Part shown: positions 7,835-40,900 of the stretch, in pieces | Layout of the letters: each line of letters opens with the position of its first letter | Numbering within the stretch: the first letter of the stretch is position 1 | Source of the DNA: a virus | Lineage: Duplodnaviria > Heunggongvirae > Uroviricota > Caudoviricetes | Reading direction: 5' to 3' (one strand) | DNA: 45,085 nt | IMG/VR virus record: IMGVR_UViG_2718217859_000005 | The notes under the pieces: model-generated | What the model was told of the DNA's origin: nothing | Databases searched by the model: none | The model's input: only the letters and a program-made list of their open reading frames with translations | Made by a program: the position numbers and the translations under genes

Positions 7835-8148
7835 CGGCGAGTAGGTACAAAATGATCCGCAACCAACATATTGATTCTGCAATTTCGGGACGTTACACTG
7901 TTCCTGCACCTTATAAAGCGGGTGCCGGGGGTCGCAGCCCGGAATTGCATACGGCGATATATGACGCGCCTGCGTCTTTTTTATCGTCCGCGCTCACGCA
8001 CGCCAGAATTATGGTGGGCTGGGCAGGGGAGCCGAAAGGCTCGCCGGTTTCCGTATGCGCCGGTACTGCGAACCCTGTTCAGTTCACCACCCATGAGTTT
8101 CGCAGCTCCGGTGGTGGAAGTTATCCATTGCATACGGAGGCTGCCATC

Positions 8149-15528: not shown

Positions 15529-15604
15529 GGCCCTTTAGCTCAGTGGTGAGAGCGAGCGACTCATAATCGCCAGGTCGCTGGTTCAAATCCAGCAAGGGCC
15601 ACCA
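15529..15604 (+). tRNA. tRNA with CAU anticodon (Ile2/lysidine-type or Met), ileX-like
   Basis: 76 nt; 7-bp acceptor stem GGCCCTT/AAGGGCC, anticodon loop CTCATAA, T-loop TTCAAAT, encoded CCA. Closely resembles E. coli ileX as recalled. Confidence 0.85.
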
Positions 15605-15605
15605 A

Positions 15606-15682
15606 CCGCCACTAGCTCATCAGGAAAGAGAGTCAACCCTTTAAGTTGAGAGTGCGAGGTTCGAGTCTCCGGTGGCGGTCCA
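15606..15682 (+). tRNA. Degenerate tRNA-like element (possible pseudo-tRNA; anticodon-loop CCTTTAA)
   Basis: Perfect acceptor stem (CCGCCAC/GTGGCGG) and anticodon stem (TCAAC/GTTGA), but a mismatch in the D-stem and in the T-stem, and C instead of U at position 33. Confidence 0.4.
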
Positions 15683-15684
15683 GT

Positions 15685-15760
<76 letters not shown>

Positions 15761-15763
15761 TAT

Positions 15764-15838
<75 letters not shown>

Positions 15839-16892: not shown

Positions 16893-17086
16893 AATGTTAA
16901 ATCCATCACAATTAAGTTGATTGGGCATTGCTGGTTGACGGAGCTTTTGTTAGAAAAAATTTGCATGGTGGATCCCCCCGGGTGGTGGGCATATGAGTGA
17001 TGTATGTTTCTGTTCTGCTCCTTTATTATGCTGATTCGGGTACTGATACTGAATTCATCGGGAGGCACCCGGCACCATGCAAGCAT

Positions 17087-17109
17087 GCCCCTCTCCTGAG
17101 GGGCTTTTT
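17087..17109 (+). terminator. Rho-independent terminator
   Basis: Hairpin GCCCCTC-TCCT-GAGGGGC followed by TTTTTA. Confidence 0.5.
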
Positions 17110-20477: not shown

Positions 20478-20702
20478 ATGAAGAAATTACTGGTAACCGT
20501 AAAGCCTTTTCAGGGAACAATTCTGTTCCGTATTTTGCAGCGTGGTCGTGTTCTTGTTGAAGGTTCGTTCAGTGGTAAATGTACGCAATTACACTCCCGG
20601 ATCTTTCAGGTGAATGCCACGAATGAAGAGCTAACCGTTGAGTGTACGATGAATGCCGCTAAATGCCGCATGGTATCGGCTGCATTACAGCCAGTGTGTT
20701 GA
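20478..20702 (+). CDS. Hypothetical protein (75 aa)
   Basis: Internal ATG of track ORF 20460..20702 (MKKLLVTVKPFQ...) with a GGAGAA RBS. Confidence 0.3.
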   Translation: MKKLLVTVKPFQGTILFRILQRGRVLVEGSFSGKCTQLHSRIFQVNATNEELTVECTMNAAKCRMVSAALQPVC

Positions 20703-20908
20703 GCGACCTTATTATCCATGCGCGGTATTGTCGCCGTATTTCCGCATTAACAGAGACCGCAGCCCGACAGGGAGACTCCTCTGCGCGAGTGTGCGGGGAT
20801 AATCAAAAACGATACACACCGGGGTTTACTGCGTTAACGGAGCGCGGCGTTGTCCCCTCATAGTCGCCTGGCCGGTGCGATGGTGGAAGAAACCGGAAAT
20901 TTATTCAA

Positions 20909-20938
20909 TAAAAAAACCTGCCGGGTTGTTACGGCAGG
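20909..20938 (-). terminator. Rho-independent terminator (minus strand)
   Basis: Hairpin CCTGCCG-8 nt-CGGCAGG preceded on the plus strand by A7, which is a T-run after the hairpin on the minus strand. Confidence 0.45.
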
Positions 20939-21562
20939 TTATGGCACATGCAGAAGAGAATGTTGTTGTTATGACGAATTTTTTATCAGATTTTAATGCA
21001 AGTATTCAATTCGAAATAACCGAGCCTGAATTACAATATATGTTATGAATTATTCTCTTATTTTTTGAGCCATTCAACAAGACTGGCATGGAGCCGTTAC
21101 CCGATCTCCATAAAGGAATAACAGGAAATATCTTATTATTAAGCATTTCTGAATAATAAATGAGGTCGCTGGATTAATATATTGTCTTTTTAACTGGAGT
21201 TGCGGTAGTTTTGCCCGATGTTTTTTGATGACTTATTATTTATTCTTATGCAATATGCGATTTTAAGTATGTTAAGTCTTTATCGGATTGTTTATGTAAG
21301 CACGATGGTTAAATTTTATGATTCTCTGCCGTCTGACATGGATTGAATTTGCTCATTATTTGACTGGGTGAATACATCATAAAACGAAAACGGGGCAACT
21401 GCACTCGCAGGCTCTTTGTCAGTGTCGCTGGTGTGTTTTGGGGCTGATAACGATGAAGACCTCTCCCGGAGGAGATTCAGACATACCTGCACAAAGCCTG
21501 AATTGAAAAGCAACAGTTATAATGTGCAGTGCGGTGGGGATGAAAAATATGTGAGCATAATC

Positions 21563-21591
21563 AAAAAAACTGCTGTGTTGGAGCACAGCAG
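21563..21591 (-). terminator. Rho-independent terminator (minus strand), downstream of the RHH-like gene
   Basis: Hairpin CTGCTGTG-TTGGAG-CACAGCAG preceded on the plus strand by A7. Confidence 0.45.
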
Positions 21592-21737
21592 TAAAGGTAC
21601 TGATAAGGGTAGAAGATTATTATTGTTATTCTTTTTTATTTTATATGACGGATGATTTCAATTCGGAATAAATACGACTAATAACTGCGACTTTTTGTAA
21701 ATTCAGCAATATAAAGAAATGGTTATATGAACAGTTA

Positions 21738-21950
21738 TCACAGAGCAGACGGTGTATCATTCTTTGTTACAGTTAACTGACGGGCACATTTTATGTCTGC
21801 TGCCAGCCTCCGGCGACAGGCTTCAATAACCCATGCCGAAAAGTTGCCGGAGCCTTTATGCTCAAGGGCGATATTGATCTGCTCAATCATGTGATTGGGA
21901 AAACGGATGTTACGGGTTGTTGTTTTGCTGGTTTTGTTCTTCGATGACAT
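21738..21950 (-). CDS. Small ribbon-helix-helix-like DNA-binding protein
   Basis: 70 aa; RNIRFPNHMIEQINIALEH...NFSAWVIEACRRRL fits a beta-strand/helix/helix RHH layout; basic N-terminal tail. Confidence 0.45.
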   Translation of the reverse strand: MSSKNKTSKTTTRNIRFPNHMIEQINIALEHKGSGNFSAWVIEACRRRLAADIKCARQLTVTKNDTPSAL

Positions 21951-22149
21951 TGTCTTTTTCCATATTCACTGCAGTGTTCTGTATTGTCCAAAGATGTTTT
22001 TACTTAAATTTGATGCAGATCAATTAATGCATTGAGACCGAACTCATTATTTGTCCTCTTTCATGGTGAACTTGTCGGTTGAGATAACTTTTATTTAATT
22101 GATAATTATTATCATTTTCGGGTCCTTTCTGGCGATCCGGCCTGTTACG

Positions 22150-36455: not shown

Positions 36456-37199
36456 ATGACACAGACTGAATCAGCGATTCTGGCGCATGCCCGGCGGTGT
36501 GCGCCTGCGGAGTCGTGCGGCTTCGTGGTGAGAACGCCGGAGGGAGACAGGTATCTTCCCTGCGTGAATACCTCCGCAGAGCCTGAGGCATATTTTCGTA
36601 TTGCACCGGAGGACTGGCTGCGGGCAGAGATGCAGGGGGAGATTGTGGCACTGGTCCACAGTCATCCCGGTGGTCTGCCCTGGCTGAGCGAGGCGGACCG
36701 GCGACTGCAGATAAAGAGTGCCCTGTCCTGGTGGCTGGTCTGCCGGGGGGCGATTCACAAGTTCCGCTGTGTTCCGCACCTGACCGGACGGCGCTTTGAA
36801 CATGGTGTGACGGACTGTTACACCCTGTTCCGGGATGCATACCATCTGGCAGGGATAACGCTGCCGGATTTTGCGCGCGAGGATGAGTGGTGGCGCAACG
36901 GCCAGAACCTGTACCTGGACAATATGGAGGCCACGGGATTTTACCGGGTGCCCCTGCCCTCTGCACAGCCGGGCGATATCCTGCTGTGCTGCTTTGGCGC
37001 ATCGGTGGCCAATCACGCCGCCATTTACTGCGGTAACGGTGAACTGCTTCACCATATACCTGAACAACTGAGTAAACGGGAGAGGTATTCTGAAAAATGG
37101 CAACGACGAACGCATTCTGTCTGGCATCACCGCCACTGGTCCGCATCTGCCTTCACGGGGATTTACAACGATTTGGCCGCCGCCTCAGCCTGTATGTGA
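36456..37199 (+). CDS. K: Tail assembly protein (lambda gpK-like, JAB/MPN plus NlpC/P60-like)
   Basis: ATG at 36456 (MTQTESAILAHARRCAPAESCGFVV...); near-identical N-terminus to gpK as recalled. The track ORF 36195..37199 starts too far upstream. Confidence 0.85.
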   Translation: MTQTESAILAHARRCAPAESCGFVVRTPEGDRYLPCVNTSAEPEAYFRIAPEDWLRAEMQGEIVALVHSHPGGLPWLSEADRRLQIKSALSWWLVCRGAIHKFRCVPHLTGRRFEHGVTDCYTLFRDAYHLAGITLPDFAREDEWWRNGQNLYLDNMEATGFYRVPLPSAQPGDILLCCFGASVANHAAIYCGNGELLHHIPEQLSKRERYSEKWQRRTHSVWHHRHWSASAFTGIYNDLAAASACM

Positions 37200-37741
37200 A
37201 TACGGCAGCGGAAGCTATTCGTGCCCTGTCGCTGCAGCTGTCGGGATTCCGCCGTCAGATGAATGAAGGCTGGTACCGGGTACGTATTCGCGGTGAGGAT
37301 ACGGCACCTGAGGCAGTGTATGCCCGCCTTCATGAGCCACTGAACCCGGGGGATGTCATTCATCTGGTACCCCGGACTGAAGGAGCCAAAAGTGGGGGTG
37401 TTTTTCAGACGGTGCTGGGTGCGGCACTGGTTGTTGCCTCCATCTGGATGCCGGGTATCGGTATTGCAGCCAGCAATATTATGTTTTCCATGGGGGCTGC
37501 CATGTCGCTGGGTGGGGTGGCTCAGATGCTGGCCCCGAAGGCAAAAACACCGGATTACCGGACAACGGATAACGGCAGACAGAACACCTACTTTTCCTCG
37601 CTGGACAATATGATTGCTCAGGGTAATCCTGTGCCGGTGCCATACGGTGAAATGCTGGTTGGTTCCCGACGGATATCCCAGGACATCAGTACCCGTGATG
37701 AAGGTGGTGACGGGAAAGTGGTGGTTATCGGCAGAGGATAA
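37097..37741 (+). CDS. I: Tail assembly protein (lambda gpI-like)
   Basis: 214 aa; ..RICL.GDLQRFGRR..; ..GAKSGGVFQ.VLGAA..; ..MLAPKA.TP...TTDNG.QNTYFSSLDNM.AQGN..PV.YGEM.VGSR.. Confidence 0.8.
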   Translation: MATTNAFCLASPPLVRICLHGDLQRFGRRLSLYVNTAAEAIRALSLQLSGFRRQMNEGWYRVRIRGEDTAPEAVYARLHEPLNPGDVIHLVPRTEGAKSGGVFQTVLGAALVVASIWMPGIGIAASNIMFSMGAAMSLGGVAQMLAPKAKTPDYRTTDNGRQNTYFSSLDNMIAQGNPVPVPYGEMLVGSRRISQDISTRDEGGDGKVVVIGRG

Positions 37742-37746
37742 AAAAA

Positions 37747-37778
37747 TCTCCCGTAATACTCACGAATATTACGGGAGA
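37747..37778. promoter_or_regulatory. 11-bp perfect inverted repeat hairpin (CTCCCGTAATA-8 nt-TATTACGGGAG) flanked by A-runs, in the I-J intergenic insertion
   Basis: Seen directly; A6 precedes and AAA follows on the plus strand (a T6 run after the hairpin if read on the minus strand). Confidence 0.4.
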
Positions 37779-37920
37779 AACGAATAGTCACCTTGATTAG
37801 TTAAGTTTTGACCAATTGCCTTTATCAGTCTGAAGAACTGTAAAAATGTGGAGTTATTCCTGCAACCGTCAGTTTCCGGAAATGTGAATAAACTCATAAT
37901 TTTTATTCAGTCATTATGAT

Positions 37921-37950
37921 ACAGGCATCCCCCGGGGTGCCTGTTCTTTT
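37921..37950 (+). terminator. GC-rich hairpin (ACAGGCA-TCCCCCGGGG-TGCCTGT) followed by a T-rich tract, about 35 nt upstream of J
   Basis: Seen directly; terminator-like or attenuator-like structure directly before the J start at 37985. Confidence 0.4.
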
Positions 37951-37984
37951 GTGCGTAACAGTTATCACAGTAAAGGGTGAGGCA

Positions 37985-40900
37985 ATGGGAAAAGGTGGCG
38001 GCAAGGCGCACACGCCAGTTGAGGCAAAGGACAATCTTAAGTCCACGCAGATGATGAGCGTGATTGATGCGATTGGAGAGGGACCGATAGAAGGCCCGGT
38101 GAAGGGACTGCAGAGTATCCTGGTGAATAAAACCCCGCTGACGGACACGGACGGCAATCCCGTGATACACGGTGTGACCGCCGTCTGGCGCGCCGGGGAG
38201 CAGGAGCAGACCCCGCCGGAAGGTTTTGAGTCCTCCGGGGCTGAAACTGCACTGGGCGTGGAAGTGACGAAGGCAAAGCCGGTGACGCGCACCATTACGT
38301 CCGCGAACATTGACCGCCTGCGGGTCACCTTCGGGGTACAGTCACTGGTGGAGACCACCTCCAGGGGCGACCGTAATCCGGCTTCTGTTCGTCTGCTGAT
38401 TCAGCTGCAGCGTAACGGTAGCTGGGTGACGGAAAAGGATGTCACCATTAACGGTAAGACCACCTCGCAGTACCTGACGTCGGTGATTCTGAATAATCTG
38501 CCTGAGCGCCCCTTTAACATCCGGATGGTCAGGGAGACGGCTGACAGCACCACGGACCAGCTGCAGAACAGAACGCTGTGGTCGTCATACACCGAAATCA
38601 TCGATGTGAAACAGTGCTACCCGAACACGGCCATTGTGGGCCTGCAGGTGGATGCGGAGCAGTTTGGCGGTCAGCAGATAACTGTGAACTACCATATCCG
38701 CGGTCGCATCATTCAGGTGCCGTCAAACTATGACCCGGAAAAACGTACTTACAGCGGTATCTGGGACGGGAGTATGAAACCGGCCTGGAGCAACAACCCG
38801 GCCTGGTGCCTGTGGGACATGCTGACCCACCCGCGCTACGGGATGGGGAAACGTCTGGGGGCCGCAGACGTGGACAAATGGGCACTGTATGCCATTGCGC
38901 AGTACTGCGACCAGCCGGTGCCGGATGGCTTCGGGGGGACCGAACCGCGGATGACGTTTAATGCGTACCTGTCACAACAGCGTAAGGCGTGGGATGTGCT
39001 CAGTGATTTCTGCTCGGCGATGCGCTGTATGCCGGTATGGAACGGGCAGACGCTGACGTTCGTGCAGGACCGCCCATCGGATGTGGTGTGGCCCTACACC
39101 AACAGCGATGTGGTGGTGGATGATAACGGTGTGGGCTTCCGCTACAGCTTCAGCGCCCTGAAGGACCGGCACACGGCGGTGGAGGTGAATTACACCGACC
39201 CGCAGAACGGCTGGCAGACCTCCACTGAACTGGTGGAAGACCCGGAAGCCATACTGCGCTACGGACGCAATCTGCTGAAGATGGATGCGTTCGGCTGTAC
39301 CAGTCGCGGTCAGGCTCACCGTGCCGGACTGTGGGTGATAAAGACCGAACTGCTGGAAACGCAGACGGTGGATTTCACGCTCGGATCACAGGGGCTGCGC
39401 CACACGCCCGGTGACATCATTGAAGTCTGTGATAACGACTACGCCGGGACCCTGACCGGCGGGCGCATTCTGAACATCGATGCCGCCAGTCTCACCCTGA
39501 CGCTGGACCGGGAGGTGAGGCTTCCGGAGACCGGTACCGCCACGGTGAACCTGATTAATGGCAGCGGTAAGCCGGTGAGTGTGGACATCACGGCACAGCC
39601 TGCTCCTGACCGGATACAGGTCAGCGCCCTGCCTGATGGCGTGGCGACATACGGGGTATGGGGGCTGAAAATTCCCGGTCTTCGACGTCGCCTGTTCCGC
39701 TGTGTGGCCATCCGGGAAAACACGGACGGCACCTTTGCCATCACGGCGGTGCAGCACGTACCGGAAAAAGAAGCCATTGTGGATAACGGGGCCACCTTTG
39801 AGCCGCTGTCCGGCTCCCTGAACAGCGTCACTCCTCCGGCAGTGCAGCACCTCACGGTGGAGGTGAGCGCGGATGATGGCCAGTATCTGGCGCAGGCGAA
39901 ATGGGACACGCCGCGGGTGGTGAAGGGTGTGCGCTTCAGTCTGCGCCTGAACCGTGGAAGCGGTGAAGACAGCCGTCTGGTGACCACCGCCATCACTGCA
40001 GACACGGCGCACCGTTTCAGTGGTCTGCCACTGGGGGAATACACCCTGACGGTGCGGGCGATAAACAGTTATGGCCAGCAGGGGGAACCCGCCACCACCT
40101 CATTCCGGATTAACGCCCCGGCAGCGCCTGCCACAATTGAACTGATACCGGGGTATTTTCAGATAACGGCAGTCCCGCGTCTTGCGGTGTATGACCCGAC
40201 GGTGCAGTTTGAGTTCTGGTTCTCGGAAAATCAGATTACGGATATCCGGCAGGTTGAAACCACAGCCCGCTATCTCGGTACGGCGATGTACTGGACAGCT
40301 GCCAGTATTAATATCAGGCCGGGCCATGATTATTACTTTTATATCCGCAGTGTGAACATCGTCGGTAAATCAGCGTTTGTGGAAGCTGTCGGCCAGCCGG
40401 TTAATGATGCTGAGGTGTATCTCAATTTTTTTGAAGGGAAAATAAACAGCACCCTGCTGGGGCAGGAGCTGAACGATCGTATTAATGCCTCGGCATTGCG
40501 CAGTGAAGTTGAGCAACTGGAGGATGAGATCAATCAGCAGATAGAGAGTGATATTGCTGAAGTGACCCAAAAAATCGGGGAGACAGAAAACAGCCTCACG
40601 CAGCTGGTTGCGAAAAAAAATGATGAGCTGTCACTGGGTATATCACAGGTGAGCCAGAGAGTGGATAACGTCAGCAGCGAACTCACGCAGACGGTCAGTC
40701 AGAGTAATGAGGAGAATGCACGCCAGATAGCGCAGGTTCGCCAGTATGTGGATCAAAAAAGCAGTGAAATCATGACGACAACGGACCAGAAGCTGGGAGA
40801 TCAGGAGGCCACCATCCAGCAGATACAAAAGGTTCAGACGGACACCAGTAATAACCTGAACAGTATGTGGGCCGTGAAACTGCAGCAGATGCAGGATGGT

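Follow-up and report, generated by a model that had tools for sequence, protein, structure and literature searches.

What occupies the space between the tail genes I and J in this virus DNA? The window, by which we mean the whole stretch of 45,085 nucleotides that was analysed, carries a lambda-like tail operon on its plus strand according to open reading frame (ORF) calls and Pfam searches. Gene I corresponds to the ORF at 37097-37741, which matches Pfam Lambda_tail_I and ends with a TAA stop codon at 37739-37741, and gene J, which encodes the tip-attachment protein with its GpJ domain, begins with an ATG at 37985. The I-J spacer is exactly 37742-37984 (243 bp), as the original prediction had described it, and the two hairpins reported there are both present. 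The accompanying statement that I and J are essentially contiguous in lambda is imprecise, as the lambda gap measures 60 bp and contains a hairpin of its own. No record examined, whether of a phage or of an E. coli genome, has any annotation inside the gap, and no conserved ORF was found in it. Rfam searches, run on the gap at a permissive threshold and on the whole window at gathering thresholds, returned no family covering the gap, and the matches inside it were at chance level only (mir-2041, 23 bits against a threshold of 70).

The hairpin on the I side (hairpin 1, 37747-37778) comprises 14 pairs and a 4-nt loop in the terminator scan, or 15-nt arms with 93% complementarity in the inverted-repeat search. 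The 11-bp perfect inverted repeat noted here earlier is real and longer than stated, and of the A-runs said to flank it, A7 is found on one side only (37740-37746, the I side), the other side carrying AAA. The A-run beside it makes hairpin 1 a rho-independent terminator on the minus strand, antisense to I and J: in that reading the hairpin is followed by U7 (37746-37740), which takes in the final two bases of the I stop codon. Taken as a whole, the observations are best explained, with good confidence, by one copy of a minus-strand small RNA (sRNA) unit of the PasB/EcOnc22-24 family in the I-J gap. The gap feature is a prophage sRNA moron at the I-J junction together with a junction hairpin, real and functional in kind. 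A small RNA locus had been among the options offered previously; that option was right, in that homologous loci encode validated sRNAs, and it missed the minus strand and the terminator role of hairpin 1. The features of the gap are as follows.

37742-37846, minus strand: predicted sRNA gene of the PasB/EcOnc22 family, diverged "type-3" subtype (covariance model R1, collinearity with the PasB locus, identity)
37740-37746, minus strand: U7 tail of the sRNA terminator (sequence, terminator scan)
37747-37778, minus strand: terminator hairpin of the predicted sRNA, 14-bp stem and 4-nt loop (terminator scan, inverted-repeat search, fold)
37779-37794, minus strand: candidate seed AAGGUGACUAUUCGUU, just 5' of the terminator (type-3 alignments, window fold)
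37795-37800, minus strand: CUAAUC, where nearly all other units carry the anti-Shine-Dalgarno-like CUCCUU (alignments)
37853-37858, minus strand: -10 position, AATAAC (promoter table)
37877-37882, minus strand: -35 position, TTTCCG, 3 of 6 matches, a hexamer that is variable across the family (promoter table)
37880-37909, no strand assigned: most conserved block of the repeat unit, plus-strand reading AAATGTGAATAAACTCATAATTTTTATTCA (column information profile)
37921-37953, plus strand: terminator-like hairpin at 37921-37944 and T-rich tail (terminator scan)
37973-37987, plus strand: ribosome-binding region of J, AAGGGTGAGG, and ATG (sequence, ORF call, Pfam)

PasB was described in prophage PP6 of EPEC O127:H6 E2348/69 (Pearl Mizrahi et al. 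2021, PMC8550237, Table S6). It is an 83-nt RNA on the minus strand of NC_011601, from 1466343 to 1466261, between E2348C_1436 and E2348C_1437, listed with the orientation code "(> <) >" and detected with the Northern probe AATCCCGCAGTGATCGCGGAGCT (PMC8550237). These two neighbors are I, which ends at 1466255, and J, which starts at 1466496, separated by a gap of 240 bp, and the probe has the sequence of the terminator in this gap, read on the plus strand. From the I stop to the J start, the window gap can be aligned with the PasB gap over its full length. Both have an I-J gap of about 240 bp and a unit in antisense orientation, with the same order of upstream block, promoter, body, and terminator and with a J-proximal plus-strand hairpin; the PasB 3' end lies 6 nt from the I stop, and the window U-tract abuts it. 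The sequences have diverged, however. The bodies are 56% identical, the terminator stem reads TCTCCCGTAAT in the window and TCCCGCAG in PasB, the -10 box is AATAAC in the window and TATAAT in PasB, and both CUCCUU and the seed block GUUAAUCUUCAU are replaced in the window.

PasB was validated by RIL-seq and Northern blot, takes part in 37 RIL-seq interactions, and shows log2 changes of -6.8 and -2.4 in the hfq mutant (PMC8550237). Its baseMean is 482-1082, compared with 4.8 and 15 for the flanking tail genes, and its level is higher in static overnight LB cultures than in DMEM cultures in exponential phase (PMC8550237). As PasB is abundant while the flanking tail genes are near-silent, the unit is evidently expressed on its own in the lysogen. 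About 20 nt separate the predicted -10 box of PasB from its reported 5' end further downstream, so that even for PasB this end may be a start site or a product of processing.

Membership of the window copy was assessed with covariance model R1, which was built from 24 other units, with the window and every type-3 unit left out, and was run with filters off. The best R1 match in the 45 kb is window 37742-37852 on the minus strand (29 bits, E 7.8e-4 under a rough calibration). This is a weak match compared with core members (74-102 bits) and resembles the scores of type-3 array units (24.5-34 bits); the PasB/EcOnc family has no Rfam model, so these scores have no independent curated threshold to be read against. 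With unit 3 of the four-unit arrays, the window body shares 80% identity. In its position the copy agrees with the family, lying in the I-J gap, antisense, with its 3' end by the I stop codon. Its terminator is rho-independent, with a 14-bp stem and a U-tract of 7 as in PasB, the predicted fold of the window retains the stem at 37747-37778, and an equivalent hairpin is found in every unit of the family. A terminator with a long U-tract is the module that binds the proximal face of Hfq. RNAalifold on 24 units supported the terminator stem alone, with a single compensatory pair, so covariation contributes little to the assignment. The upstream block GAATAAAAnTTCTGAAnnTCTTCACATTT is also in place at 37880-37909, at the usual spacing of 32.5 bp from its centre to the "-10" position.

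Two elements of the family are altered in the window. The -10 box normally resembles TATAAT in having an A at position 2 and a T at position 6, and reads TATAAT, AATAAT, CATAAT, or TATCAT in the relatives; the window has AATAAC, in which the position-6 T (at -7) is gone. A consensus scan of 37000-38700 found no consensus-like sigma-70 promoter on either strand. In the body, the family seed block AACUCCUUaaaGUUAAUCUUCAU is replaced by AACUAAUCAAGGUGACUAUUCGU. Zhu et al. placed the PasB seed in the region just 5' of the terminator (bioRxiv 10.64898/2026.05.13.724894). The equivalent region of the window copy, AAGGUGACUAUUCGUU, is conserved among type-3 units and is partly paired in the window's own predicted fold, whereas its equivalent in the predicted PasB fold is unpaired; we infer a seed role for 37779-37794 in the window copy. 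The 3' end of the predicted sRNA is the U-tract. The 5' end is uncertain and would lie either near 37832, if aligned to the reported PasB 5' end, or near 37846, 7 nt past the -10-like box. With the -10 box weakened and the seed region altered, expression of the window copy is uncertain on sequence grounds, while its terminator, upstream block, and type-3 block are intact. Hfq dependence, expression in the lysogen, and base pairing, as demonstrated for PasB and EcOnc22, would follow for the window copy by analogy, from homology and position.

Further relatives come from EHEC O157:H7 Sakai, in which EcOnc22, EcOnc23, and EcOnc24 are homologous to one another and were assigned to the plus strand of Sp15, Sp14, and Sp11, respectively (Tree et al. 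2014, PMC4104026, Table S2). They were found by Hfq-CRAC, and EcOnc22 appears at about 85 nt on Northern blot and is destabilized without Hfq (PMC4104026). The PasB papers do not name them among the homologues, and the 2021 paper gives no EHEC homologue of PasB (PMC8550237). The EcOnc22/23/24 positions correspond to the I-J gaps of Sp15, Sp14, and Sp11, prophages whose I and J are minus-strand genes, which makes the RNAs antisense, and R1 scores 96 bits at each of the three loci (L124, L125, and L126; NC_002695.2 2902830-2902926, 2676761-2676857, and 2166811-2166907). The CRAC peak coordinates refer to an older genome version and were shifted by an offset of +137 to +146, calibrated on AgvB at 1.94 Mb, away from the EcOnc loci; the corrected peaks fall within the R1 matches. 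Allowing for this offset, which we infer, EcOnc22-24 are very likely PasB-family members. They share with the window unit its placement in an I-J gap and its antisense orientation, but they are core-type members, in contrast to the type-3 copy of the window.

Other prophage sRNAs, namely AgvB, AsxR, PasA/C, and PasD/STnc100, resemble the unit as short Hfq-binding RNAs expressed in lysogens from conserved lambdoid insertion points. They differ in lying downstream of PR' near the lysis genes instead of in the tail operon, and they have no sequence relationship with the window unit. An identity as an AgvB/AsxR-type anti-sRNA was considered and rejected, since those sit at the PR' moron site.

Several further RNA features were observed elsewhere in the window. 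Rfam places a copy of STnc100, a relative of PasD, at 16934-17109 (plus strand, 93.7 bits), isrK followed by C4 antisense RNA at 7906-7982 and 8007-8094 (plus strand), and three tRNA genes within 15529-15835 (plus strand). Even when up to 3 mismatches are allowed, the PasA and PasC probes match nowhere in the window. The stretch 20700-22000 is ORF-poor and A+T-rich, and its minus strand carries two strong terminators (20940-20915 and 21592-21569) as well as a single promoter-like site (21077-21049). R1 has weak matches there (18.9 and 16.5 bits), which are probably driven by the terminators, and the stretch could hold additional sRNA genes that lack annotation.

The most conserved part of the unit lies outside the RNA. 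The column information profile shows that the block at 37880-37909 is more conserved than the RNA body, and it is located directly upstream of the sRNA promoter, overlapping the -35 position by 3 bp. It is found in every array unit (see below), which makes it part of the sRNA unit, not of J. The block is probably a protein-binding or UP-like promoter element. Its pattern, AAATGTGA-N6-TCAtA (TGTGA-N6-TCAtA), is CRP-site-like and unique within the window, where 0.02 occurrences are expected by chance, and the distance from block centre to -10 box is 32.5 bp in all units. Class II activation by CRP was considered and set aside: the block fits AAATGTGA-N6-TCAnA, but its centre lies 32.5 bp from the -10 box instead of the canonical 29.5 bp. 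DMEM contains glucose, and the higher level of PasB in LB than in this medium would fit CRP control, which we regard as only a lead.

We then surveyed the distribution of the gap. In phage records, the match is limited to the J-proximal half (37854-37984, about 85% identity) and falls in unannotated I-J gaps of long-tailed Stx1a, Stx2c, and Stx2a phages. Of 5426 complete E. coli genomes, 844 contain matches to the gap, with as many as 10 sites in a single genome, and about 15 of the 5426 carry the exact 243-bp form; E. coli MFDS1022581 and OkiPb01701 are 100% identical to the window over 37600-38100. Other prophages have an I-J gap of about 910 bp, likewise unannotated. The locus set comprised 80 IMG/VR loci with a closely related J and loci from E. 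coli genomes. The 58 related loci analysed contain one to four units per I-J gap (about 240 to 930 bp), delimited by motif and hairpin searches and by MAFFT. Across the locus set, the gaps fall into the following classes.

About 60 bp: no unit, as in lambda
239-264 bp: one unit
422-426 bp: two units
716 bp: three units
908-930 bp: four units
855 bp: minus-strand sodC, which encodes a Cu,Zn superoxide dismutase, in place of most of the unit

Arrays of two, three, or four units are found at L004 (751-1667), L005 (1060-1970), L088 (1285-2001), and L057 (1576-2001). The 915-bp gap of L004 consists of four diverged tandem units; Tandem Repeats Finder reported nothing in it because the units are less than 70% alike. 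In the minus-strand alignment, the block order is constant across 49 distinct units from the 58 related loci and the window: GAATAAAAnTTCTGAAnnTCTTCACATTT, a variable -35, the -10 box, CGTTAC with a T-run, a variable stretch, AAuAACUCCuUaaaGUUAAUCUUCAU, and the terminator hairpin with its U-tract. Every array unit has its own terminator and its own upstream block, so that each looks like an independent minus-strand transcription unit. The recurrence of the same architecture in hundreds of E. coli genomes and in the 58 related loci makes the feature more than a chance occurrence.

The window copy belongs to a subtype, type-3, defined by the terminator stem TCTCCCGTAAT...ATTACGGGAGA and the conserved block AAGGUGACUAUUCGUU adjoining the terminator on its 5' side. 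When 2.9 million viral contigs were scanned, only 14 type-3 stretches were recovered, in two lineages, one being unit 3 of the arrays and the other the single-unit form as in the window. The closest sequence relative is array unit 3 (L004 1201-1309, L116, L005), with which the window shares the 80% identity mentioned above, the block GGUGACUAUUCGUUUC, and the terminator TCTCCCGT...ACGGGAGA. Array unit 3 has a CATAAT -10 box, retains CUCCUU, and sits within an array, whereas the window copy is the sole unit in its gap. The window lineage differs from all other units twice, in its AATAAC -10 box and in the change of CUCCUU to CUAAUC. The 2026 survey reported PasB variants with few nucleotide differences only and no tandem copies (bioRxiv 10.64898/2026.05.13.724894). 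The type-3 subtype would therefore have escaped capture there.

Three observations accompany this survey. At the unit junctions of L004 (905-985 and 1365-1445), the sequences GGGGATAAAAAAAT and ATCGGTGGCAGAGGA resemble the last I codons and the A-run (GTTATCGGCAGAGGATAAAAAAAT in the window), with a local alignment of junction to I end at p of about 0.005 against shuffles; judged from sequence, this suggests that the arrays may have grown by recombination that copied the I 3' end along with the unit. In the 855-bp gaps (L082 1150-2000; also L084, L096, L062, L106, and L008), sodC is encoded on the minus strand with its own terminator (Pfam Sod_Cu, E 4e-32). It replaces the sRNA promoter and the pre-J hairpin, and a PasB-like body and terminator remain just downstream, so an sRNA there could come from the sodC 3' region. 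A scan of genome contigs with the J N-terminus yielded mostly lambda-type 60-bp junctions, which are uninformative for the unit. Near-identical junctions of this type, with a J about 77% identical to that of the window, occur in Streptomyces, Neobacillus, Shewanella, Bradyrhizobium, and other assemblies (L010, L013, L014, L016-L018, L020, L022-L027, L036, and others), often on short low-coverage contigs, and contamination with phage lambda DNA is the likely explanation.

The second hairpin of the gap is a separate matter. The original prediction of a GC-rich hairpin and T-rich tract before J was borne out: hairpin 2 (37921-37944) has 10 pairs, 6 of them G-C, and the tail TCTTTTGTG, and it ends 40 nt ahead of the J ATG. 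With a G+C-rich stem and a U-tract on the coding strand, 37921-37953 has the sequence features of a terminator. The hairpin occurs in the J-proximal position only and is nearly invariant across J-proximal units, a single stem pair varying between C-G, U-A, and U-G; internal array units and sodC-type gaps are without it. A plus-strand sRNA ending at this terminator was considered and rejected, as there is no conserved plus-strand promoter and the internal array units lack the terminator. The lambda I-J junction has a 60-bp gap with no sRNA unit and no similarity to the gap sequence, but a strong hairpin is predicted there, immediately ahead of J (-21 kcal/mol, z = -2.8), formed by AAACCGCC-TGCG-GGCGGTTT about 25 nt before the J start. 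With a hairpin at the same position in lambda, the pre-J hairpin looks like a general lambdoid feature. In some loci (L068, L101, and L070), 2 to 4 copies of the heptamer CAGACAT follow the pre-J hairpin, within the last approximately 60 nt ahead of J; these repeats account for part of the 240-264 bp length spread and are absent from the window.

Could the gap instead serve J, encode a protein, or derive from a mobile element? The attenuator idea of the original prediction, in which 37921-37953 would terminate part of late transcription and so set J levels, draws on the terminator-like form of hairpin 2, its conservation in every J-proximal unit, with one stem pair varying as C-G, U-A, or U-G, and the lambda hairpin at the same relative place. 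Lambdoid late operons are, however, transcribed by a Q-modified, terminator-resistant polymerase. Since such a polymerase ignores terminators, a true J attenuator is considered unlikely; moreover, J is kept in sodC-type gaps that lack the hairpin entirely, and the hairpin covers only about 30 of the 243 bp, the remainder, including the minus-strand terminator, being accounted for by the sRNA unit. The earlier statement that the gap has no ORF of meaningful length is essentially right, the only ORF noted being one of 42 aa on the minus strand (37769-37897). That this ORF is what the gap encodes is very improbable. It is present and is followed by the minus-strand terminator, but its ATG is confined to the exact sequence variant of the window and is replaced by CTG in 45 of the 49 distinct related units, including the closest relative L044; no Shine-Dalgarno sequence precedes it, and it has no Pfam match. 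The length of the gap (243 bp against 60 bp in lambda) and the inverted repeats inside it speak for a MITE or IS-like remnant inserted between I and J, a reading to which we give hardly any weight. The repeat search found no terminal inverted repeats and no target-site duplication: the inverted repeats are two local hairpins, and no direct repeat flanks the segment. The matches in E. coli are confined to I-J gaps and not dispersed, and length variation reflects the number of tandem units or the presence of sodC.

The alternative that bears most directly on the window copy accepts the homology and questions the function. The copy might be a decayed, untranscribed PasB-family gene, homologous without function, and we regard this as a genuine possibility that falls short of an even chance. 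It is favored by the -10 box without the key T at -7, a -35 hexamer with 3 of 6 matches, the loss of the CUCCUU motif, the partial pairing of the seed-equivalent region, and the rarity of the exact 243-bp form among E. coli genomes; the promoter changes are limited to the lineage of the window, L044/L128, and L141. On the other hand, the terminator is perfect and stronger than those of the array copies, neither the conserved upstream block nor the AAGGUGACUAUUCGUU block is disrupted, and activator-dependent promoters often have poor hexamers. We tentatively put forward a different view, although it is somewhat unlikely to hold as a whole: the I-J junction would be a cassette site for 1-4 tandem, seed-diverged sRNA genes under a common conserved promoter-upstream operator, possibly for CRP or another host factor, and the type-3 copy of the window would be no relic but a functional paralogue, with a seed that has switched and a target set of its own.

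On the preferred reading of a PasB/EcOnc22-24-family unit in the gap, the sRNA gene would be a self-contained transcription unit, or moron, opposing the direction of the tail operon. Its predicted order on the minus strand is the conserved block (37909-37880), the -35 (37882-37877) and -10 (37858-37853) positions, the RNA, and the terminator. The RNA would be about 90-105 nt long, from about 37846 or 37832 to 37742, with the terminator hairpin (37778-37747) and U7 abutting the I stop codon. Their Hfq-dependent stability and their ligation to many mRNAs in RIL-seq mark PasB and EcOnc22/23/24 as trans-acting, Hfq-dependent base-pairing sRNAs that use the single-stranded stretch on the 5' side of the terminator for pairing. 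The window copy, a rare diverged subtype, may be weakly expressed, re-targeted, or decaying. The pre-J hairpin would be a separate feature of the J-side junction, most likely passed by Q-modified polymerase when the late genes are transcribed. Its role would otherwise be to halt transcription that is not antiterminated ahead of J, or to shield the 3' end of processed upstream mRNA.

An sRNA gene at this junction is of a kind already published, with PasB in 2021 and 2026 and EcOnc22-24 in 2014. New here are the diverged type-3 member, the arrays of one to four units, and a site held in common with sodC. A system of this known kind accounts for the window copy, which may have weak activity or none, and with its recognition as an sRNA gene copy the annotation of a previously unannotated gap is corrected. 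The PasB family is far more diverse than blastn surveys suggest, and its insertion site is also used by the virulence gene sodC. Prophage sRNAs such as PasB and EcOnc22 tie prophages to the host Hfq network in pathogenic E. coli.
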